In this document: piece after piece, positions 1 to 10,753 of the stretch | How the letters are laid out: each line of letters opens with the position of its first letter | Position numbering within the stretch: the stretch's first letter is position 1 | From: Pseudobdellovibrionaceae bacterium | Lineage (GTDB): Bacteria > Bdellovibrionota > Bdellovibrionia > Bdellovibrionales > UBA1609 | Direction of reading: 5' to 3' | Length of the DNA stretch: 64,000 nucleotides | Assembly (NCBI GenBank): GCA_030591685.1 | Contig: JAUVAX010000001.1 | Coordinates: 92,873 to 156,872, forward strand | The notes under the pieces: generated by a model | The model's input: only the letters and a program-made list of their open reading frames with translations | Told to the model about the DNA's origin: nothing | Database searches by the model: none | Position numbers and translations under genes: made by a program

Positions 1-3000
1 TAAAATTGTGTCTCCAAAAAAATATTTCGATTTTTCAATATTAAAATCAATTCCATTAGACCAACTCATCATTAAAAACATGAATATTATAGCTAGTGAT
101 AACCGTCACGGGCTCTCCTTAAAAGTAACTGGACTCAGAATTAAAGTTGAAAATCAGCTCAAGGCACTTTACACAGAGATTAATATCCCTAAGTTAACAC
201 TCAAAAGAAATAAATATCCAGCCCTTGCTGATTTATACATTGATACACAATTCTTATTAACCCCTAATTCTATTAAAATTGCAGGGTTAAAAATAAAAAA
301 GAAAAAATCATATGTGGTAGCAACAGGCGAGATTAATGCAAATGTCGCTGAACTTAAGTATAATAAATCAATAATAAAAACTAGAATGAATGTAAACCTT
401 CGAGAAATCACTCAATTTTCACATTATTTTTTCAAAGAACTCATGCTGCCCAATTTAACAGGGCATGCTTATTTGGATACTAATTTTTCACACTCTAAAG
501 GAGAAAAGCTCACTTCTAATTTCAAGTTAAAAACAAAAAAATTAAATATTAATCAGTTTGTGATTGGCAACATCACCCTTGAAGGGCACACCACTCCTAG
601 TGATATATTGCTGAAAAATGCTATGCTTGAGAACAATTCAGGTAAAATCACCTCTACCCCAATACAAATACCCCTCTCGGGCGCAGCAAGCTTTAAAACG
701 TCTATTAAGATACATGACCTTGAGCTGAGCCAATTATTAAAAAACCTCGACCTAAAAAGGCCACCTCTTAGATTAAATACACAAGGGGAGCTCAACTGTA
801 AAATCACTATTAAGCCTAAATTCAAAGTCAACTGCAACAAATCACGTTTGAAAATATCTCACTTTCATCTGTTTAGTGACAAACAACATATGCAAGAAAG
901 TACCATTGTAGACCTTAGCGATGTGACTCTAAATGGCGGAGTTACCGTAGACAGTAATAAGGTCACCTATTCATCCTCTATTAAAATAAAAAACTCTACA
1001 GGCTCTTCAAAGGGGACCATTTCCTATCAAAAGGGTTTTTATATCACTTATAAAACGGCTCAACCGGGGCTCGCCTTTGACGACATAAATAACCTGGTCC
1101 ATCTTAACTTAGGTGGGACGGCCATGGTTACAGGCTCTACAGCTGGAACGAGTAAATACGCCACCATAAACATGAGGATTAGAGCCAAAGATTTTCTTTT
1201 CCAGGACTTTAAAATGGGCAAGGTCAGCACTGATTTGAAATACAAATCAGGAACGCTATATTTTAAAAAAATTGTGGGCAAGTACAAACAAAATCGATAT
1301 TTTTCAGATTTAAATATAAATCTCACCAAAAGCCGCATCTACTTAAAAGGTCGCTCTGAGTATTTTAACATTCAAGACACTCAGGAAATGCTCATTAAGC
1401 ACCTCAAGATCCCCTTTGACTTCACCGGAAGCGGGCAGATGGATATAGTCCTCAATAGTCCTCTTAATTTAAAAAAACTAAATTATGACCTGAATTTCAA
1501 TTTATTTCGTGGAACTCTTGCCAAAGAAAACTATGATGAAATAAAGGGGCACATAAATAGCAAGAACGGAAAGGTCACAACTAATAATATCACTCTTAAT
1601 AAGTCCAACTCCACGATTAGCCTAAAGGGGTCTGTTTTACCTGACACAAGTACAAATATAGACATATCTGCAAGAAATTTTAGAATTGAAGAGTCCAAGC
1701 ATATTTCTAACTATGGGCTTAATTTAACTGGACAAATAGATTTAGACACAAAAATGACGGGCCCCCTTAATAGTCCCAATTTATTAATTAATGGGCGCCT
1801 AAGCAAGGTGCTTATTGCTGAGTACCCACAAAGGTCTTCAGCTTTTTCATTAAACATTAACAAACAGTTTGTCTCCGGCAGAGGAGCTCTCTTTGGAAAT
1901 ACACTAACGACAGACTTCAAATTCCCAATATCAAAAAATGAAAACTTTAAATTCGTATTAATAACTAAAAATTGGGACTTTATTAAACTATTTAATTTAT
2001 TTGCAAAAAAAGATATACAAAAAAAATATCATACTCGTTTAAACTTACATGCAGACCTCAAAAGCAAACGAGGCGGGCTCTGGAACAGCACCGGGGCCGT
2101 AACTGTCAACAGCTTTAACATTGAACGAGGGTCTATTAAAATGTCCTCCAAAAATTCACCGCAAATCTTGTTTAATAAGGGGAAAATATCTACGCATAAT
2201 TTCAAAGTAACCGGGGAGAACACATTTGCTGAACTTGTCTCTAAAAACACGGTAAAAAATAATCTTAACCTAGAGCTCACAGGCAAAATCAATCTCGGCT
2301 TGGCAGCCATACTCACCCCGCTTGAAGACTTATCAGGACTTGCAAATGCTAAAATTAAAATTACAGGCAAATCTACTCAGCCCAAATTTATGGGTTCAGC
2401 ATACATACATAACACTACCGTTAAAATTAAAGATTTCCCCCACTCTTTTACAGAGCTGAGTGCGGACATCCTGTTCAACGATGACAAGGCTTATTTAAAT
2501 GCCGCAAAAGCAAAATTTGCAAATGGAGACGCACGAGCCTCCGGTAAAATTATCTTCAGTAGTCTCGATAATATACAAGTGGATGCTCGAGGCGACTTTG
2601 AGAATGTCTCACTAAATTTTCCTAAAAATATTATAACTCACGGCTCAGGCACACTATATCTAACAGGCCACTGGTTTCCTTATGAACTCGGTGGAATATA
2701 TAATATAACTGGAGGTGAGTTTAAGGCCGAATTCACAGACGCAAACAGCTCTAGTATAACAATTGCTCCCAGCCGGTTTTTGCCTAAATTTCTTGTTAAA
2801 AAGGGGTTCGAACCACTAAGTCTAAATCTAAATATTGAAATGCTTAAGCCAATACACATCAGGAACTCTCAAATGACAGCGCCAATACAAGGTCAGTTAG
2901 CTGTTACAGGCACTCCAACAAACCCTATTTTAAACGGCCAGCTCTTATTTAAAAAAGGTGGGCAAATTGCTTTTAGAAAAAACAGCTTTGAATTACAAAG

Positions 3001-3589
3001 AGGAAACGTAGAGTTTAAAAATTCATCACCAGACAATCCAAACCTTTTTATTGCGGCCTTAACTCAAATAGAAAGTAACGACATTAATTATGATATCAGC
3101 CTACTTATGCAGGGCTCCGGTAAAAACCCAAAAATGAACCTCATAAGCTCTCCCCCACTCTCTGAAGTTGACCTCGTTACGCTACTGGCCTTAGGCATTA
3201 CTACAACTGAACTTGAAAAGACAAACTCACAAGAGCAGGCCACTCAAACCTCATATCAAATTGGGTCAGCTCTTCTCGCAAGTCCAATAGGCAAGCAATT
3301 TAAAAAGAGGTTTGGGTTAGACGTACAAATATCAAGTGATTTTGAAGAGCAAGTTGCAGTACCTAAAGTAACTTTAAAAAAGCAGTTTACACCAAAGCTA
3401 AGCGGCGCTGCCAGTCAAACACTCGGGGATAAACCTAAATTTAATGCTAAGGCTCAGTATAAATTTGATAATAACTGGTCTGTCATTGGTTTTTATGACT
3501 CTACTGAGGAAACTGACGACAGCGATAACACCACAAAAGATAACGACTCAATTGGCATCGACCTTGAGTATCGTTTTAAGTTTAAGTAG
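1..3589 (+). CDS. tamB: Translocation and assembly module TamB/AsmA-like protein (C-terminal DUF490-type region); probably 5'-truncated by the window edge
   Basis: Frame is open from the window start (ORF track 8..3589). Long beta-rich repetitive protein with a TamB-like C-terminus (G..P.L.G, L.S.P.LSE.D..TLLALG, D..YRF.F end), directly upstream of an Omp85 gene. Confidence 0.85.
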   Translation, partial: KIVSPKKYFDFSILKSIPLDQLIIKNMNIIASDNRHGLSLKVTGLRIKVENQLKALYTEINIPKLTLKRNKYPALADLYIDTQFLLTPNSIKIAGLKIKKKKSYVVATGEINANVAELKYNKSIIKTRMNVNLREITQFSHYFFKELMLPNLTGHAYLDTNFSHSKGEKLTSNFKLKTKKLNINQFVIGNITLEGHTTPSDILLKNAMLENNSGKITSTPIQIPLSGAASFKTSIKIHDLELSQLLKNLDLKRPPLRLNTQGELNCKITIKPKFKVNCNKSRLKISHFHLFSDKQHMQESTIVDLSDVTLNGGVTVDSNKVTYSSSIKIKNSTGSSKGTISYQKGFYITYKTAQPGLAFDDINNLVHLNLGGTAMVTGSTAGTSKYATINMRIRAKDFLFQDFKMGKVSTDLKYKSGTLYFKKIVGKYKQNRYFSDLNINLTKSRIYLKGRSEYFNIQDTQEMLIKHLKIPFDFTGSGQMDIVLNSPLNLKKLNYDLNFNLFRGTLAKENYDEIKGHINSKNGKVTTNNITLNKSNSTISLKGSVLPDTSTNIDISARNFRIEESKHISNYGLNLTGQIDLDTKMTGPLNSPNLLINGRLSKVLIAEYPQRSSAFSLNINKQFVSGRGALFGNTLTTDFKFPISKNENFKFVLITKNWDFIKLFNLFAKKDIQKKYHTRLNLHADLKSKRGGLWNSTGAVTVNSFNIERGSIKMSSKNSPQILFNKGKISTHNFKVTGENTFAELVSKNTVKNNLNLELTGKINLGLAAILTPLEDLSGLANAKIKITGKSTQPKFMGSAYIHNTTVKIKDFPHSFTELSADILFNDDKAYLNAAKAKFANGDARASGKIIFSSLDNIQVDARGDFENVSLNFPKNIITHGSGTLYLTGHWFPYELGGIYNITGGEFKAEFTDANSSSITIAPSRFLPKFLVKKGFEPLSLNLNIEMLKPIHIRNSQMTAPIQGQLAVTGTPTNPILNGQLLFKKGGQIAFRKNSFELQRGNVEFKNSSPDNPNLFIAALTQIESNDINYDISLLMQGSGKNPKMNLISSPPLSEVDLVTLLALGITTTELEKTNSQEQATQTSYQIGSALLASPIGKQFKKRFGLDVQISSDFEEQVAVPKVTLKKQFTPKLSGAASQTLGDKPKFNAKAQYKFDNNWSVIGFYDSTEETDDSDNTTKDNDSIGIDLEYRFKFK

Positions 3590-3596
3590 GTAAATA

Positions 3597-6383
3597 GTGA
3601 AACTTTTTGGAAATATAATCATACTCTTGTTACTCGGATCACATCCAGCACTGTCGTACCAAATACAATTTGAAAACATCAAACCTAAATTAACAAGTTC
3701 ACTTGAGGCCGAAAACCCTAAACTTTTTTCGGGGAGCGCTAACCTTAAAGACGTTGACGATGCGATTAGAAAGATAATGACATCTCGACTCTATTCTCGT
3801 GTAGTTGCCACAAAATCATCAGATAACATTATAAACATTAAGGCTCATATTATAAGAATATTCTCTTCAATTAATTTTACCGGAAACAACGTGTTCTCTA
3901 GTTCAAACCTCTCAAGCATCATCTCCATTTCTAAATCTCAAATTTTTGATAGGGTTAAAATTGAAAACTCAAGGCGAATAATCTTAAATCATTATAAAAA
4001 CAGCGGCTTTCTTAAAACTAAAGTTTCAACTTCAATTAAATTTAATACGCCGGGGAATACTCAAGTTATATATACAATTGTTGAGGGTCCCTCTAGCAAA
4101 TTATCAAAAATTAAAATCAATACAAAAAACACCTACCTTGAAAGAATATTATTAAAAAAAGTTCGAAATTTTATCAATAAGCGACTCACCTCAACACTTC
4201 AGAATGAAATCAAATCCATTATCAGTGACTATTTATCAGAAAATAGATATTTTTTAGCCCGAATTAGTGCTCCCTTAATTTCATTAAGTAAAGATCAAGA
4301 GTCTGCTGAAATTAGTTTCGATGTATCAAGTTCAAAGAAGTACGAGATACTTTTGTTTGGTAACACTTCTTTTTCAACACTAGAGCTTTCAAGAATACTT
4401 AAATTCAGCACCTTTGAAAAGGGCTCGGACCCCCTCCCTTACATTCAAAAAATCCTCACTAACCACTACCTCAACTCTGGTTATGCAAATGTTGAAATAT
4501 CTATCACCCCCTTAGAGAAGAAAAACCCTCACTCTATTTGGCTAAAGGTCTCCATAAAGGAAAGTAAAAAAATATTTATAAGTGACATTATTTTCAAAGG
4601 ACGATTTTCTAAAAGCACTAAATATTATATTGATTTTTTACGTAAAAATAGTTCACAAATTATATCTAAATCTTTTTATAATAAAATTGATTTTGATTTT
4701 GGGCTAACTAACCTTATAACTCATCTACAGAACTTGGGTTTTGTGCATGCAAAAGTGTCCTCCGTTCGTGTCAAAAAAAATAAATCTGGTTCAGAATTAA
4801 CAATTAGTGTCTATTTAGAGGAAGGTCCCTTAACTCTCATAAATAAAATTAACTTCATTGGGAACAACTCTTTTAATTCAGAGACACTTATTGATACTTT
4901 TGGTCTCAAGAAGGGCTCTCCGCTGAACTCAGAAATTATCACACAGGGTTTAGAAAAAATAAAAATGTATTATGATAATCATGGTCATATTGAAATGAAG
5001 ATTTTAAATAACAATCAGGACATAGTAAAGTACCTGCCCAACAACTCTTCAGCTAATTTATTAATTAAAATCTTTGAGGGGCCGTCGGTTACAATTAAGT
5101 CCATCATTATTGAAGGAAATGAAAAAACAAAAGACTATGTAATTTTAACGGAGATACCGTTGAAAAAAAACAGCCTTGTCACCTCAGAATTATTAAATGA
5201 AACTAGGCGGCGATTAAATAATTTAGGCGTTTTTAACCTCGTTCAGGTCAGCACTCTAGAAAGAAATACTAAACTCTCTGATCGAACATTAATTGTTTCT
5301 CTCGCTGAGCGAGACCCCGGGCTTGTTCGAATAGGGCTTGGTGTCACTGATGAGCACAAGCTTACGGTTCGTGGATTTACAGGGGTCTCTTACAATAATA
5401 TTTCGGGGCATGCACGTGCTGCCAGCCTAAGAGCTGATTTAATGAGTCATGTTGAGCTCTTTGATCGGCCTACTTACAAGGTTACTTTTGATTACCTAGA
5501 GCCCTTTTTATTAAGTTCTCGAACTCGTGGACGCTTAAATATAACCGTAAAAGAACTTTTGAAAATCGCAGACAATGCCACCGATCCAGATCTTGTTGAT
5601 CGCTCTAACCAAATATCACTGACTTTAGAGCGCGACCTAATAAATCACATTAACCTTACATGGACTATGTACAAGCTCGATACCCGTGAACAATTTGATA
5701 TAAACACCTTAACACCAAAATCTAATCGTGACCAAATTGCAACTATGGGGCCCGCTATAACTTTTGACAATAGAGACAACCCCTTTTTACCATCAAAGGG
5801 ATACTATGCACGTTGGTTTTCTGATTACTCAAGTCCAAATATCGGCAGCTCTGAAAAGGTAAAGTTCTACAGAACAAACATAAGTATTACAAATTACAGA
5901 AAAATTGAAGAAGGTTCTAATGTGATCTGGGCAAATAGTATAAGGGGGGGGTACTTAGAAAATCTGAGTGATTTATCTGGCTCGTCCGTACCAAAGTCTT
6001 ATGCATTTGCACTAGGGGGCAGGTCTACAATTAGAGGTTTTGATGCCGGAAGCCAAAACGACCGACTCTTGCCTGACATTGAGCTTCCTGACGTAGTCGG
6101 GCAACCTTATATAGAAAACTCTCAAAGCTATTATTTATATAAAACAGAGCTTCGTTTCTCATTATATAAAAATTTTGGGGCCGTATTATTTTATGATGCT
6201 GGGGCTTTATTTGCTAAAGGCGTGACTCAGAAAAAGCCCTTTAGACAGTCGGCAGGCTTCGGGTTTAGATATAATACTCCCTTTGGGCCCGTAAATTTTG
6301 AGTTTGCATTTAAACTTGATCGTATCCCAGAGTATACAGAGGAGGACCCTTTTAGGTTTCACTTCTCAATAGGTAGCTTCTGA
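3597..6383 (+). CDS. Omp85 family outer-membrane assembly protein (TamA/BamA-like, multiple POTRA domains)
   Basis: Signal peptide, repeated POTRA-like segments (I.F.GN..FS...L; Y...G....V..EG), GGRSTIRGF motif, C-terminal GFGFRYNTPFGP...FHFSIGSF. Confidence 0.9.
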   Translation: MKLFGNIIILLLLGSHPALSYQIQFENIKPKLTSSLEAENPKLFSGSANLKDVDDAIRKIMTSRLYSRVVATKSSDNIINIKAHIIRIFSSINFTGNNVFSSSNLSSIISISKSQIFDRVKIENSRRIILNHYKNSGFLKTKVSTSIKFNTPGNTQVIYTIVEGPSSKLSKIKINTKNTYLERILLKKVRNFINKRLTSTLQNEIKSIISDYLSENRYFLARISAPLISLSKDQESAEISFDVSSSKKYEILLFGNTSFSTLELSRILKFSTFEKGSDPLPYIQKILTNHYLNSGYANVEISITPLEKKNPHSIWLKVSIKESKKIFISDIIFKGRFSKSTKYYIDFLRKNSSQIISKSFYNKIDFDFGLTNLITHLQNLGFVHAKVSSVRVKKNKSGSELTISVYLEEGPLTLINKINFIGNNSFNSETLIDTFGLKKGSPLNSEIITQGLEKIKMYYDNHGHIEMKILNNNQDIVKYLPNNSSANLLIKIFEGPSVTIKSIIIEGNEKTKDYVILTEIPLKKNSLVTSELLNETRRRLNNLGVFNLVQVSTLERNTKLSDRTLIVSLAERDPGLVRIGLGVTDEHKLTVRGFTGVSYNNISGHARAASLRADLMSHVELFDRPTYKVTFDYLEPFLLSSRTRGRLNITVKELLKIADNATDPDLVDRSNQISLTLERDLINHINLTWTMYKLDTREQFDINTLTPKSNRDQIATMGPAITFDNRDNPFLPSKGYYARWFSDYSSPNIGSSEKVKFYRTNISITNYRKIEEGSNVIWANSIRGGYLENLSDLSGSSVPKSYAFALGGRSTIRGFDAGSQNDRLLPDIELPDVVGQPYIENSQSYYLYKTELRFSLYKNFGAVLFYDAGALFAKGVTQKKPFRQSAGFGFRYNTPFGPVNFEFAFKLDRIPEYTEEDPFRFHFSIGSF

Positions 6384-6521
6384 TAACACACCCTTATAGA
6401 AAATATTACTTACTCTTGAAACAATTTATGTCACTCCCTTAGTTCTTATGAACTTGAAACTCTAATCAAACGCAAAATCAAGTACTTAAGCTTTGTTTTA
6501 GCTAGTAATTACGCCTATTTT

Positions 6522-6537
6522 TGGCATCAACCTTGCT
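6522..6537 (+). promoter_or_regulatory. sigma54 (-24/-12) promoter candidate
   Basis: TGGCAT-CAACC-TTGCT (GG-N10-GC), 32 nt upstream of the ATG at 6570. Confidence 0.65.
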
Positions 6538-6569
6538 CTGTAGTAGCTTATAACAATAAGAGGTAAGGT

Positions 6570-7058
6570 ATGAAAATTAAAATGAAAGCATCCACATTGA
6601 CATTATTTAAGGTTACTAATTTTGGGCTTATTCTTACGTTAGTCATTTTAGTGTCTGCATGCTCAACATTAAAAACAATGAAACCGACTAAAGACAAAAC
6701 GGCTGTATTAACTACATCCACAGGTGGCCGAGTTGAAATTAGTGATTTAAACTCTAAAAAACAGCCCGCAAAAATCAAACATGTAATATTTAACAAGAGA
6801 ACGCGACTTTGCAAAAAAAATCCTAAATCTGAAAACCTTGCCATAAAGCAAGAGGAGTTAGACCTAGAGCTCTCCTTTATGATTAATAGCCTCAGTAATC
6901 AAGAGCTTACAGTCTCAAAAAAAGGCTCTTCATACAGACTATTATCAAAAAATATGATGACAAACCTCTACAACACTCCTAATTGCCCAAAGTTTCGGTA
7001 TAAACTTCATATTATAAGTAAGCTTTTAAAGGGCCATCAATTGGTCTCTATGCAGTAA
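6570..7058 (+). CDS. Hypothetical lipoprotein
   Basis: Basic N-terminus, hydrophobic stretch and lipobox-like VSAC; no family recognised. Confidence 0.6.
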   Translation: MKIKMKASTLTLFKVTNFGLILTLVILVSACSTLKTMKPTKDKTAVLTTSTGGRVEISDLNSKKQPAKIKHVIFNKRTRLCKKNPKSENLAIKQEELDLELSFMINSLSNQELTVSKKGSSYRLLSKNMMTNLYNTPNCPKFRYKLHIISKLLKGHQLVSMQ

Positions 7059-7145
7059 TGACATTGCTGTAAGTTAAAACTGTATTAAGAACTGATTATT
7101 ATATTCTTAAAATAATGAAATTTTTTTCTTTGCAGCCCCAAGGGC

Positions 7146-7174
7146 TTGCATTAGAACTATCTATCTCCTATTTT
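7146..7174 (+). promoter_or_regulatory. Possible sigma70 promoter of the peptide operon, overlapped by an imperfect inverted repeat
   Basis: TTGCAT-N17-TATTTT; TGCAGCCC-CAA-GGGCTTGCA (7131-7150) overlaps the -35. Confidence 0.35.
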
Positions 7175-7203
7175 TCTGGTTCATAAAACAAAAGGAGATC
7201 TAA

Positions 7204-7317
7204 ATGAAATCAAAAATAAAAAAAATTAATATAAAAGAGCTCGAACAGGAGCTCCTGCATTTAAATACTTATTCCACTTATGGTGTAAAATTAAATACGT
7301 GCACCTTTGATCGTTAA
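7204..7317 (+). CDS. 37-aa small peptide MKSKIKKINIKELEQELLHLNTYSTYGVKLNTCTFDR, putative RiPP-like precursor or signal peptide (not in ORF track)
   Basis: AAAGGAGA RBS at 7191-7198, ATG 7204, TAA 7315-7317 overlapping the AGGAGG RBS of the next gene; ELxxEL leader-like motif; Ser/Thr/Cys-containing C-half. Confidence 0.7.
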   Translation: MKSKIKKINIKELEQELLHLNTYSTYGVKLNTCTFDR

Positions 7318-7331
7318 GGAGGGTGCCGACA

Positions 7332-8381
7332 ATGATTGCTCGAAAAAATATTTTACAAAATGAATCACCTGAAGCTCATACTTACCCGTCTAGAGTGCAA
7401 AATGCCACTCTCTGGGAGAAGCTCTTTGTCAGTGAAAACAGTCCACTGCGAGAGCTCTTTCAGGAGTTCGAATTCAGCCGAAGGCTAAATCCATTTAGAT
7501 TGATGCACAAGGTAAAACATGAGACCTCTCTGGATGACAGTAATAAGGTTGAGTTTTCAGAAAAAGTACTCCCTAACAATAACCCCGTAAGCGTTGAAAG
7601 CTATCAGTCCGTAGGCGCCTACCTTGCCCTTTTTTCATGGTTTGGCGTGACCGATTTACATAAAAACAACATGATGTATAAAACAATTAATAGACACACT
7701 AAAATTACACCTCTCTCCATTGAATGCATATTTAATGATATTTACTTACCCTCGCAAACACTCTTAGCCCCAAAAAAGACTGATCAGAACAACCATTCAG
7801 GTTTTGATAAAATATTTGATCACTTGAAGTCAGAAGGTACGACTCAAGATATTTACTTATTTATTAAGGGGTATATTGAATACCTATTGTTCTTAAACAC
7901 AATAAAGCAGAGGATTTCTACACTTGTGAATTCAATTGAAAATGTTCATAACACTCCTATTAGAGTACTTGTTAAAAATGATAGCGTGTACTTAAAATTT
8001 TTTAAGGGGTATTTAATGACGGCGCAAGAATTTGAAAAAACTGAAGTTTTACAACTTAAGAAAAGCAAAATACCCTATTACTTTCATTACTTAAATGAGA
8101 ATAAAATCTACTTCTACAATACACTTGAAGAGCAGGAGCCCATACGTCAAAACTCTCCTATTCACAAATCCATACACAAACTCTCTAGAAGACAAGGCGT
8201 TATGCCTAGTCAAAATTCATATAGGAGCTTACTTGAGCGGGGAGCTTTGCAATTAGCTCGTTTACTGTTACCTAAAGATTATTCAGGTACTCTCGGAGAT
8301 AAGAATTTTAGTATAAATGCCCAACACAAAATAATCACAATCAAGTGCGCTGGTGAGTTTTATGTTGAATGTGAGTCTTAG
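7332..8381 (+). CDS. Stand-alone LanM N-terminal dehydratase-like (DUF4135-like) protein, catalytically degenerate, no cyclase domain
   Basis: GAYLALFSWFGVTDLHKNN, PLSIECIF, IRVLVKNDSVY and EVLQLKKSKIPYYF follow the LanM-N motif order (G.LLAL...DLH.EN, P.IDLE.LF, R...R.T..Y, E..DL..GDIPYF). ATG 7332 is best spaced from AGGAGG (track start GTG 7323). Confidence 0.7.
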   Translation: MIARKNILQNESPEAHTYPSRVQNATLWEKLFVSENSPLRELFQEFEFSRRLNPFRLMHKVKHETSLDDSNKVEFSEKVLPNNNPVSVESYQSVGAYLALFSWFGVTDLHKNNMMYKTINRHTKITPLSIECIFNDIYLPSQTLLAPKKTDQNNHSGFDKIFDHLKSEGTTQDIYLFIKGYIEYLLFLNTIKQRISTLVNSIENVHNTPIRVLVKNDSVYLKFFKGYLMTAQEFEKTEVLQLKKSKIPYYFHYLNENKIYFYNTLEEQEPIRQNSPIHKSIHKLSRRQGVMPSQNSYRSLLERGALQLARLLLPKDYSGTLGDKNFSINAQHKIITIKCAGEFYVECES

Positions 8382-9297
8382 AGTTAGGGTTTCCCATCCG
8401 CAAATAAGTGAATCAGATGACTATAAACTCCCTGTTATGTATTTATTTGATAATCTCATTCGAAATAAGCTCGCCATGGACTCAAAATATAATCTGGTCC
8501 AAGTTCTAAATTTAAAAAGCAAGTGTAGTTTTGACTGTTTTGCGTCGCTTTCAAATGAAGATGTTTATAAAGTACTCACGGGCCTCATTAACAACTCTTG
8601 TGAAGCTTGTGATCAGAGAAAGGGTTATATTCGCGTAAGAATAGAGGAGAAAAAACTTTTTATAAAAATTTTAATTATTGATAGCGGCACAGGAGTCCCC
8701 CATGAGATTCTTACTCGCTTAAACAACAAGAGCTTTTCTTACAAAAAAACTACTAGTACAGGATTTGGCTTAGGTTACTCTCAAAAAATATTACGAAGCG
8801 TGGGTGGGGACGTTATTTTGAAATCAAGAGCTCATAGGGGTACTATTACTGAAGTTACAATACCTAAAGGCCCAGCCCCCAGTTATCTGGCTACAAGTAT
8901 TGATATCAATGTACCAAATATTGTTATTATTGATGAGGGTCTCGACACAAGAAATGACTGGATGTCTCGGCTTCATAATGTCCCAGGGTCTAATGCTCTG
9001 AGTTTTACTTATTTCGAAAGTCTTAATCAACTTGAGCCTTTTTTGCATCACTATGCAGAGCAAGTCGATCAGTGTTTATTTTTAATAGATTTTTCTCATG
9101 GAGATCAAAATTGCCTAGAGTTTATTACTAAAAATAAACTTAAATCAGGATCACTCCTGGTGTCTAGAGGCTATGAACACCCTGAATGCATTAGAGCGGT
9201 CACCGAACTTGGGTTGAAAATATTGCCTAAGGTGTTAATCCCGTATATACCGATCAAATATGGCTCTGATGTTAGTGTACCGACCGTTGCTTTGTAA
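8353..9297 (+). CDS. GHKL (HATPase_c) ATPase fused to a C-terminal receiver-like domain; no HisKA or sensor domain seen
   Basis: N-box LINNS, G1 IIDSGTG, G2 GFGLG, then IVIIDE...FLID...LLVS...ILPK receiver pattern; overlaps the end of the upstream gene; exact start uncertain. Confidence 0.7.
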   Translation: MSFMLNVSLRVRVSHPQISESDDYKLPVMYLFDNLIRNKLAMDSKYNLVQVLNLKSKCSFDCFASLSNEDVYKVLTGLINNSCEACDQRKGYIRVRIEEKKLFIKILIIDSGTGVPHEILTRLNNKSFSYKKTTSTGFGLGYSQKILRSVGGDVILKSRAHRGTITEVTIPKGPAPSYLATSIDINVPNIVIIDEGLDTRNDWMSRLHNVPGSNALSFTYFESLNQLEPFLHHYAEQVDQCLFLIDFSHGDQNCLEFITKNKLKSGSLLVSRGYEHPECIRAVTELGLKILPKVLIPYIPIKYGSDVSVPTVAL

Positions 9298-9451
9298 AAT
9301 TTCCTAAAAACTAAACTTTGACCCATGTTTAAAAAGTAAATTTGTTGTTTTTACGTCTGATTATTCATAGACGCTCTTACTTTCTTTACTTATTTTTTTT
9401 CATATGCTTTAAATCTAACTGAAAAAGCAATTAATACTGTAAGGAATAAAT

Positions 9452-10753
9452 TTGAGTTCTCTTGTTTCACTTTTAGGTATATTTGTATTTATCGGGTTTA
9501 GCTACTTACTCTCTTCACACCGCAAACAAGTTGATAAAAGAGTGATTATTAATGGCCTCGCCCTACAGTTTGCACTCGCTATATTAGTTTTAGGTATTCC
9601 TGCGATACATTTTAATGGGCCTTTGCAGTTTTTACTACAGTGGGCCAATGTGTTTTTTTTAAGTATTCTTAGTTTTACTGAGCAGGGCACAAATTTTTTA
9701 CTGGGCCCTTTTTCAAGTCGAGAAACATATGGGTTTGTGTTTGCCATACATGCTTTGCCGACTATTATATTTTTCTCTTCATTAATGGCCGTTCTCTATC
9801 ATTTAAATATTATGCAAAAAATTGTAAAAGCATTAGCTTTTGTAATGTTTAAAATATTAAGGACCAGTGGTGCTGAATCTTTAGCTATGGCGGCCAATGT
9901 TTTTATCGGACAAACTGAGGCGCCTATTGTTGTACGCCCCTACGTAAAAAACATGACAAAGTCTGAGCTAATGACCCTTATGACGGGCGGTATGGCGACC
10001 ATCGCAGGGAGTGTGCTCGCGGCCTTTGTAGGCCTGTTACAGTTTAAAATCCCAAATATTGCGGGGCATTTACTGACGGCCTCTGTTATGTCTGCTCCCG
10101 CTGCCTTTTTATTTTCTAAAATTATATATCCTGAAACAGAAACCCCACTGACTTTACAAAAAATACCTGACGAACTCCCAGAGCAAAAATCTGTAAACAT
10201 TATTGAGGCCGCCGCCAAGGGCGCCAGCAGCGGGATGAAAATGGCTATAAATGTGGCCGCCATGCTTTTGGCTTTTATAGCCTTAATTGCCACATTAAAT
10301 GGAGTGTTAGGTTACTTTGGCGAACTCATTAACTTTAACTCATGGGGCAGGGATCTTATCCCGGAGGCCTTTATAAGCCGTGGACAGGCTGGGTTGAGCT
10401 TACAACTGATGTTCTCTTGGGTGTTCGCCCCTGTGGCTTGGCTTATGGGAATACCCTGGTCGGACTGTTTTACGGCAGGGGCTTTACTTGGTGAAAAAAT
10501 AGTTATTAATGAGTTTGTCGCCTATGTCCACCTGAGCGAGTTGACAGAGCAACTCTCTGAGCGATCTCTTATTATTTTATCTTATGCCCTTTGTGGATTT
10601 GCAAACTTTTCGAGCATAGCAATACAAATTGGCGGCATTGGGGAGTTAGCCCCATCAAGAAAATCTGAGTTGGCACAATTTGGAATCAAAGCAATGATTG
10701 GCGGTAGCCTTGCTGCCTTCACAACAGCAAGTATTGTTAGTTTGTTTATTTAA
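9452..10753 (+). CDS. CNT/NupC family concentrative nucleoside transporter
   Basis: LPTIIFFSSL, ANVFIGQTEAP, GGMATIAGSV, NEFVAY, YALCGFANFSS motifs. Confidence 0.92.
   Translation: MSSLVSLLGIFVFIGFSYLLSSHRKQVDKRVIINGLALQFALAILVLGIPAIHFNGPLQFLLQWANVFFLSILSFTEQGTNFLLGPFSSRETYGFVFAIHALPTIIFFSSLMAVLYHLNIMQKIVKALAFVMFKILRTSGAESLAMAANVFIGQTEAPIVVRPYVKNMTKSELMTLMTGGMATIAGSVLAAFVGLLQFKIPNIAGHLLTASVMSAPAAFLFSKIIYPETETPLTLQKIPDELPEQKSVNIIEAAAKGASSGMKMAINVAAMLLAFIALIATLNGVLGYFGELINFNSWGRDLIPEAFISRGQAGLSLQLMFSWVFAPVAWLMGIPWSDCFTAGALLGEKIVINEFVAYVHLSELTEQLSERSLIILSYALCGFANFSSIAIQIGGIGELAPSRKSELAQFGIKAMIGGSLAAFTTASIVSLFI

Follow-up and report, generated by a model that had tools for sequence, protein, structure and literature searches.

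The window analysed here is a 64,000-nucleotide stretch from a Pseudobdellovibrionaceae bacterium, part of contig C47 of a 2.66 Mb genome whose completeness is rated 100%. It holds a three-gene unit (Table 1; positions are those of the window) encoding a 37-amino-acid (aa) peptide, a DUF4135 protein related to the dehydratase domain of class II LanM enzymes, and a protein with a GHKL ATPase and a receiver domain. The locus appears to be a disarmed, truncated variant of a peptide-signalling cassette that is apparently undescribed so far. Sequence comparison indicates that the unit very probably descends from a Bdellovibrionota cassette with the order peptide, DUF4135, family-5 solute-binding protein (SBP5), membrane hybrid kinase and MFS, as found at locus L030. 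In our best reading, held at even odds, the disarmed unit has since been kept as a peptide-binding pseudo-enzyme plus a phosphate-accepting receiver. The parent cassette would be the larger prize: with a minimal LanM-type enzyme, a precursor, export by MFS or Sec and an SBP5-gated kinase, it would constitute self-encoded modified-peptide signalling in Gram-negative, predatory-type bacteria. The window copy is of use as a natural loss-of-function variant, which marks residues that the active enzyme needs and shows how the cassette breaks, and its protein may be a LanM-derived pseudo-enzyme. An earlier reading of the DNA by a model (hereafter the sequence-only reading) had presented the unit as a candidate new system; as such it is weaker than first thought, because its layout occurs once.

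The three genes and the residues they have lost

Direct reading confirmed three open reading frames (ORFs), at 7204-7317, at 7332-8381 and, overlapping the second, with its end at 9297. The coupling described in the sequence-only reading was also confirmed: the 37-aa peptide gene has its own ribosome-binding site (RBS), and its stop codon overlaps the RBS of the next gene. The third ORF encodes 314 aa from GTG 8353 or 311 aa from ATG 8362; the ATG, which is also the start on record (P0008), is most likely the start used. Measured against shuffles, codon usage gives z-scores of 6.1 and 5.1 for the two long ORFs and 1.2 for the peptide. Two RNA runs compared with the window gave no match.

The second gene had been read as encoding a LanM-N/DUF4135-like protein of ~350 aa, and profile and fold comparisons identify its 349-aa product as a stand-alone homologue of the LanM dehydratase domain. 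The profile search proposed for 7332-8381 gave a divided answer. As a single sequence the protein matches PF13575 at E 4e-5 and 23.4 bits, under the 29-bit cut-off that nine of nine homologues scanned pass, and TIGR03897 at E 1e-4. A 51-row family profile, searched against Protein Data Bank (PDB) sequences, matches LicM2 (2.4e-13) and CylM (2e-12); a 10-row profile found no match there. The neighbours of the protein in the Atlas are DUF4135 clusters. CylM is the top fold match of its structural model (Z 12.1, root-mean-square deviation 4.1, 248 aligned) and the best match of a model of the L030 DUF4135 protein (Z 15.4, deviation 3.7, 278 aligned); Foldseek returned nothing for the window model at E 0.001 or better, with CylM at 5.9e-3. 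The protein is complete at 349 aa and is followed by the HATPase gene; a fused C-terminal LanC-like cyclase is absent. A genome search with PF05147 (LanC) gave 0 matches, but equally 0 in its 14 controls.

We transferred CylM numbering through the 51-row-profile alignment. Among 50 relatives, the equivalents of K274, D347, N352, D364, E366 and R506 are invariant, and that of T512 is Thr in 45 and Ser in five. The window enzyme retains the equivalents of D347, H349, N352, E366, R506 and H254, has Glu at D252, and has lost those of K274, D364 and T512. At the KPR site of K274 the alignment is ambiguous: the motif has either been deleted or given way to other residues, with Arg21 aligned to the Lys. 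The family profile aligns to the window protein only from position 33 on. In the accessible part of a study of CylM mutants (PMC4550811), D364A abolished dehydration, K274A left a little of it, and T512A failed to eliminate phosphate. We predict that the window enzyme is catalytically dead and yields neither a -18 nor a +80 Da product, because the equivalents of K274, D364 and T512, kept in 50/50 relatives, are missing. The proposal that the peptide is modified by its LanM-like neighbour is therefore unlikely to be right, as the three residues lost are those whose mutation cripples CylM in that account.

One candidate, a 13-residue deletion at the KPR site, was rejected: comparison with the wider family allows it, but comparison with the three closest homologues does not, since their N-termini are equally short. 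These homologues are three Logan proteins, P0004, P0005 and P0006, which are 42-46% identical to the window protein and did not appear among the loci returned by a metagenome scan. They keep K274, D364 and T/S512, and their D252/H254 motif is weak or missing; they may phosphorylate without elimination, like the enzyme EmbM discussed below, or have miscalled starts. A plasmid search with P0005 gave no match.

The third protein is, as first described, an overlapping HATPase-receiver protein without an H-box. HATPase_c matches it at E 1e-12, Pfam finds no HisKA, and the sole His ahead of the N-box lies ~62 residues upstream of it; in 132 of the 149 closest homologues the H-box stands 104-139 residues ahead. 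The receiver, which Pfam did not call, was identified through alignment and motifs. Within the GHKL domain the G1 box and the second N-box Asn are intact. At the Gly74 column Gly occurs in 0 of 184 homologues, and at the Ser132 column Ser occurs in two of 184. A full search yielded 149 GHKL-receiver homologues, at most 35% identical and mostly kinases of 450-1100 aa; 11 are at most 400 aa long, and eight of these, possibly fragments, lack an H-box by pattern. In a length-limited search at 1e-10 the protein matched only itself, which does not imply uniqueness.

The parent cassette and the probable origin of the unit

Of 384 genomes of the order, 45 encode a stand-alone DUF4135 protein of ~345 aa, as do 32 of 401 sampled from the phylum; the source genome is included in both counts. 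We mapped 49 distinct loci, 45 from the order-wide list (not all listed) and the rest from other homologue scans; several are close kin. Left out of the counts were six duplicate loci and 16 of 17 loci from a metagenome scan (L013-L025, L027-L029), which hold other, mostly longer DUF4135 proteins and no cassette by profiles. Neighbours were labelled with profiles seeded on Pfam-checked genes. Near DUF4135, SBP5 was found at 43/49 loci, a kinase of at least 400 aa at 42/49 and both at 39/49, with an MFS gene at 21/49 and a sigma-54 activator at 18/49. Of the ten loci lacking an SBP5 or kinase call, six run into a contig end, and the remaining four are L036, L076, L089 and L107. The earlier view that the context is one of signalling, and not of antibiotic biosynthesis, is upheld.

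Directly upstream, 37/49 loci have a short ORF in which a motif resembling I-[DN]-L-x-x-L-E precedes a Ser/Thr tail, against 0/281 control ORFs; the pattern was written after the peptides were seen, and the controls are other ORFs of the same loci. Some of the 12 loci that miss the motif have visible upstream peptides. Ser or Thr occurs in all 37 tails, and Cys in nine. By its sequence the window peptide is a member of this precursor family: it bears the leader motif, its tail has Thr, Ser and one Cys, it has no hydrophobic signal sequence, and it is the sole RBS-led motif peptide in one scan of its genome. With the motif and the missing cyclase, the pairing of a precursor of the type seen in RiPPs (peptides made by the ribosome and modified after translation) with a cyclase-less LanM-type domain, suspected from the sequence, is borne out. 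The window peptide also has an internal repeat (LNTY, LNTC); it resembles the doubled leader motif of the 45-aa L030 peptide (L030:7761-7895), in which each copy is followed by a Thr-Thr or Thr-Asn-Thr stretch.

Precursors in the family range from 22 to 101 aa. MFS genes accompany short peptides (20/27) and never long ones (0/10), and a signal-peptide-like start, by a crude pattern, is found in eight of the ten long peptides. Long precursors with a signal-peptide-like N-terminus, the motif near the C-terminus and no MFS occur at L008:4708-4995, L035:7594-7896, L037:184-465, L091:7739-8023 and others. In such MFS-less cassettes the long precursors are predicted to be Sec-exported and paired with a cytoplasmic modifier.

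Taken from gene content and LanM chemistry, the parent gene set is probably a modified-peptide signalling cassette that would make, export, capture and respond to its own signal. The enzyme would phosphorylate and dehydrate Ser and Thr of the peptide tail, the peptide would be exported through MFS or by a Sec signal, and SBP5 would capture it and switch the kinase, often towards a sigma-54 activator.

The window unit can be placed next to one such cassette. In a quick tree of the DUF4135 family its enzyme is nested with P0004-P0006 (support 100) and then with L030 (support 89), the nearest genome-anchored relative. L030, the same locus as in G305, a genome of the same family, has the order peptide, DUF4135, SBP5, HisKA-HATPase kinase, MFS. 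Among the 49 loci, the cassette gene that directly follows DUF4135 on the same strand is SBP5 in 17, MFS in one and a kinase in none. A three-gene, intracellular, H-box-less layout as a conserved system, as the sequence-only reading envisaged, is thus not what the homologues show; of the two neighbours whose conservation it had proposed to check, the upstream peptide is conserved (37/49) and a HATPase-receiver gene directly after DUF4135 is not (0/49).

The junction itself resembles an SBP5 start. In 15 of the 17 directly following cases the SBP5 start overlaps the DUF4135 end. At L030 it lies 20 nt before the DUF4135 stop, in the context ATGTTGAA, and the start of the third ORF of the window shares both this offset and this context. 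Kinase homology sets in at about residue 22 of that ORF, in the first helix of the ATPase domain, and the cassette-kinase profile matches it from position 311 of 597 only. The six frames of 6300-9500 contain no SBP5, MFS or kinase N-terminal remnant. The source genome has no match to the cassette MFS profile or to the MFS of L030, and no SBP5 in the members' range (at most 171 bits against a minimum of 295).

The simplest history is a single in-frame deletion. Such a deletion, of ~2.3 kb, would have brought the start codon of SBP5 into frame with the kinase immediately past the phospho-acceptor helices, removing SBP5 together with the sensor and phospho-acceptor parts of the kinase; the MFS gene is also gone. 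The copy left in the window would neither make, export nor sense the parent signal.

Retained unit or relic

If the disarmed unit has been retained, the DUF4135 protein would have lost its ATP/metal site long ago while selection on the fold and on acceptor-site residues continued. The pseudo-enzyme would hold unmodified peptide in the cytoplasm. The GHKL-receiver would not autophosphorylate, and its intact receiver would accept phosphate in trans, as a sink damping another kinase. The best candidate for the phosphate donor would be the one full-length kinase of the same subfamily in the genome (G000:C22:40458-42611, L114), a 708-aa HAMP-HisKA-HATPase-receiver protein that scores 361 bits on the cassette-kinase profile, for which the members' minimum is 247 and the genome's other kinases reach at most 136. 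Close to the kinase, its contig ends within tandemly repeated 8-base units. We consider it unlikely that the parts go as far as forming a cytoplasmic switch, in which the LanM-derived pseudo-enzyme would bind its own unmodified precursor and, according to that binding, control a kinase-dead GHKL-receiver that drains phosphate from the related kinase; were this true, a RiPP maturase would have been re-used as a peptide receptor. The peptide-controlled circuit of the sequence-only reading would be this special case of a retained unit.

Several features of the unit argue for retention. The 60 differences at 175 positions common to the three closest homologues, which include changes on the sisters' stem, have a mean BLOSUM62 score of +0.57, against about -0.4 in a neutral simulation. 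When a neutral frame of comparable size was simulated, it was still open after 20 replacements in 19-22% of runs and after 40 in 3-5%. Ser129 and Asp217 of the enzyme and Gly74 of the kinase fragment are each two base changes from the family residue, with 18 other conserved enzyme columns unchanged, and this 2+2 pattern of two-step losses has P ~0.002 under uniform hits. The RBSs, the leader motif and the receiver residues are all intact. Uniform neutral decay fits these observations badly, and because the differences are conservative, the frames open and the changes two-step, the enzyme fold seems to have been constrained after the site was lost.

Other observations weigh against this reading. 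The fold constraint, judged from a single genome, may predate the deletion, and the 2+2 test was framed post hoc on the assumption of uniform rates. The overall divergence of the kinase fragment is uninformative on timing because it lies within the cassette range: the fragment departs at 21 of 53 conserved columns, the C22 kinase at 15 and the L030 kinase at 14, and its CA (11) and receiver (10) departures fall inside the cassette range of 0-13. An overall excess decay of the fragment was considered and, after these controls, dropped. No cassette genes flank the C22 kinase, so its link to the unit is a guess. Both long-ORF proteins are one-member clusters from one genome, and the window layout occurs once, with no second instance in the 49 loci, nor in 14 additional loci of the phylum whose flanks were short. 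Codon scores are at the 8th-10th percentile of the genome's ORFs (the upstream neighbour is at the 13th). Finally, broken cassettes are frequent, four of the 49 loci being visibly so (L036, L076, L104, L107).

This frequency, and the singleton status of the unit, fit the reading to which we give appreciable, if minority, weight: that the unit is a functionless relic of a signalling cassette, with the enzyme disarmed earlier, the SBP5/kinase deletion recent and stops not yet acquired, or, in a variant, with the frame maintained for no other purpose than driving the coupled downstream start. A broken cassette at L076:8967-11200 retains the same kinds of parts, kinase tail, peptide and DUF4135: an insertion, which we take to be transposase-like, cuts it and leaves ~150 aa of kinase tail, the peptide and an intact enzyme, at 90% identity to the whole cassette L073. 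Also in favour of a relic, the unit lies in a variable interval that holds unrelated genes and no cassette in five of five relatives fetched, and a cassette-type MFS and an SBP5 in the members' range are missing from a genome rated complete. However, frameshifts, gaps or an insertion mark the other broken copies, whereas the window has open frames and intact RBSs; the two-step changes are restricted to catalytic sites; and the breakpoint spares a complete ATPase domain in frame, the frame being expected by chance one time in three. The decaying RiPP relic that the sequence-only reading had offered as its alternative survives to this extent, with the difference that the source would be a signalling cassette and not a lanthipeptide cluster.

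It is improbable that the enzyme is instead an atypical active one, with Arg21 or another basic residue standing in for the Lys and Glu131 as metal ligand, still phosphorylating the peptide or modifying it otherwise within an intracellular circuit such as the sequence-only reading proposed. The retained D347, H349, N352, E366 and R506, and H254/D252 present as His16/Glu14, would suit such an enzyme, one alignment places Arg21 on the Lys, and slight activity of CylM K274A is recorded in the accessible part of PMC4550811. Yet the same text reports D364A to be without dehydration, and Asp stands there in 50/50 relatives. Moreover, the N-lobe strand segments 1-24 and 63-83 are below pLDDT 50 in the window model and confident strands in that of L030, although the two models come from 10-row and 46-row alignments, so that their pLDDT values are not strictly comparable.

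A decayed class II lanthipeptide cluster, with a LanM minus its cyclase half, is very improbable. LanM homology and a peptide tail with Thr, Ser and one Cys would agree with it, but the ~345-aa stand-alone form is the normal state in the order, Ser or Thr is universal and Cys infrequent in the family's tails, and the neighbours are SBP5 and kinases. Hardly credible, lastly, is an assembly artefact that falsely spliced a kinase tail onto the end of DUF4135 or garbled the motifs: the genome is metagenome-assembled and was seen as an assembly without raw reads, but contigs of run X1 show 0 differences from the window over 7653-8320, which includes Ser129 and Asp217, and a separately assembled X1 contig spans the DUF4135/kinase junction (8328-8771) with 0 differences and no joints or indels listed, X1 being possibly the source sample, and so a second assembly but not a second organism, and the KPR-site piece lying outside the pieces shown.

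Known systems, neighbourhood and variation of the cassette

The parent family has sequence profile and fold in common with class II LanM (CylM, PDB 5DZT; LicM2, PDB 6ST5; PF13575). It also shares the equivalents of D252, H254, K274, D347, H349, N352, D364, E366, R506 and T512 and a short, leader-bearing Ser/Thr peptide upstream. It differs in size (~345 aa and no cyclase, against 979-993 aa), in having no peptidase-ABC exporter among annotated neighbours and in the scarcity of Cys in its tails, and the window copy differs further through its three lost residues. With no fused cyclase and catalytic residues missing, the window locus is not a class II lanthipeptide system. Pseudokinases lose the ATP-site Lys and the metal Asp and keep the fold, and phosphate sinks are stand-alone intact receivers without a phospho-donor of their own; the window unit, with Lys and Asp lost and an intact receiver lacking its own donor, would resemble both. 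In peptide pheromone systems, as would be the case in the parent cassette, a ribosomal peptide is sensed by a co-encoded kinase.

Cyclase-less LanM-like proteins have precedents in PoyF (polytheonamide) and EmbM (phospeptin), whose dehydratase or kinase domain has Thr as its target; EmbM goes no further than phosphorylation, and a sensor kinase and a regulator also belong to its cluster (PMC9505594, in its accessible text). The parent enzyme resembles these as a stand-alone LanM-type domain. As far as that text goes, PoyF and EmbM are active and work with NHLP or Nif11 leaders, whereas the family has a 7-residue leader motif and SBP5 with MFS or Sec, and the window copy lacks the kinase residues too. 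On the sensing side, a family-5 solute-binding protein feeds a membrane kinase in the Vibrio CBP-ChiS system (PMC8050422, accessible part). There the ligand is a chitin sugar and CBP also serves a transporter, whereas peptide and modifier are both encoded within the parent cassette itself; SBP5 and sensor are both lost in the window. Nisin autoinduction through NisK/NisR likewise has a ribosomal peptide sensed by a co-encoded kinase (PMC5266694, as far as accessible). Lantibiotic autoinduction is Gram-positive and relies on direct sensing of a ring-containing peptide, in contrast to a cassette of a Gram-negative lineage with no rings and a binding-protein co-receptor. In a literature search that covered a minority of subscription journals, neither the cassette nor a LanM pseudo-enzyme was found described. 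A study that mined DUF4135 was, by its accessible text, limited to sequences of at least 500 residues (PMC10676384), and the ~345-aa family would escape it because of this limit.

Table 1. Features of the three-gene unit in the window
Feature	Position	Strand	Basis or remark
Shine-Dalgarno AAAGGAGA, peptide gene	7191..7198	+	Sequence; 5 nt upstream of ATG 7204
37-aa precursor-type peptide	7204..7317	+	Carries leader motif and a tail with Ser, Thr, Tyr and Cys; lacks a signal peptide
Leader motif INIKELE, aa 8-14	7225-7245	+	Sequence
Terminator-like hairpin within peptide gene	7235-7256	-	Consensus scan only
Shine-Dalgarno AAGGAGG, DUF4135 gene	7316..7322	+	Overlaps peptide TAA 7315-7317; 9 nt before ATG 7332
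349-aa stand-alone LanM dehydratase-domain (DUF4135) homologue, predicted catalytically dead	7332..8381	+	Profiles, fold, residue losses
KPR motif site (CylM K274), here R-V-Q-N; motif absent	7392..7403	+	KPR in 50/50 relatives
DLHKNN motif, kept (CylM D347, H349, N352)	7653..7670	+	Alignment
Ser129 at metal-binding Asp (CylM D364)	7716..7718	+	Asp in 50/50 relatives; two base changes apart
Asp217 at phosphate-elimination Thr (CylM T512)	7980..7982	+	Thr 45/Ser 5 of 50; two base changes apart
20-nt overlap with DUF4135 end; putative ancestral start of deleted SBP5 gene	8362..8381	+	-20 offset and ATGTTGAA as in L030
311-aa GHKL (HATPase_c) + receiver ORF	8362..9297	+	No membrane sensor, no HisKA/H-box; C-terminal half of cassette-type hybrid kinase
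GHKL ATPase domain (approximate limits)	8425..8871	+	N-box first Asn -> Gly74; first G2 Gly -> Ser132
Receiver domain (approximate limits)	8917..9261	+	D191/E192, acceptor D243, S268 and K290 intact
Terminator-like hairpin ending the unit	9354..9373	+	Consensus scan only

Promoter-like sites in the scan were at chance level (8 found against 11.2 expected). The genes at window 8-6383 and 9452-10753, which we take to be TamB/TamA-like and NupC-like, respectively, are linked in five relatives, where genes that differ from one to the next fill the 2.8-18.7 kb in between, and the interval is insertion-prone. Just upstream of the unit, on the plus strand, lies a 162-aa ORF (6570-7058) with a lipoprotein-like signal (LVSAC); Pfam and NCBIfam gave no useful E-value for it or for the 37-aa peptide. 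It is not a cassette member in other loci, and a homologue (E 1e-8) sits at L110:4161-4571, in the equivalent variable interval of G010.

The cassettes themselves vary in their surroundings. Two ATP-grasp genes lie upstream in L030 (L030:3661-7063). In one subgroup, erythromycin-esterase-family genes, possible processing enzymes, stand between DUF4135 and the kinase (L010:5782-7152, L033:8963-10192). VirB4/TraC-like genes in the flanks of 11 loci (L008, L009, L011, L032, L038, L077, L079, L080, L082, L083, L107) suggest carriage on conjugative elements; a VirB4-like protein had no match in the source genome. L089:7924-9144 encodes a 406-aa DUF4135 protein without cassette neighbours, and L100:1127-3769 an 880-aa SBP5-like ORF, perhaps a fusion. 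At L031 a whole cassette is found on a Polynucleobacter-titled contig, through either transfer or mis-binning.

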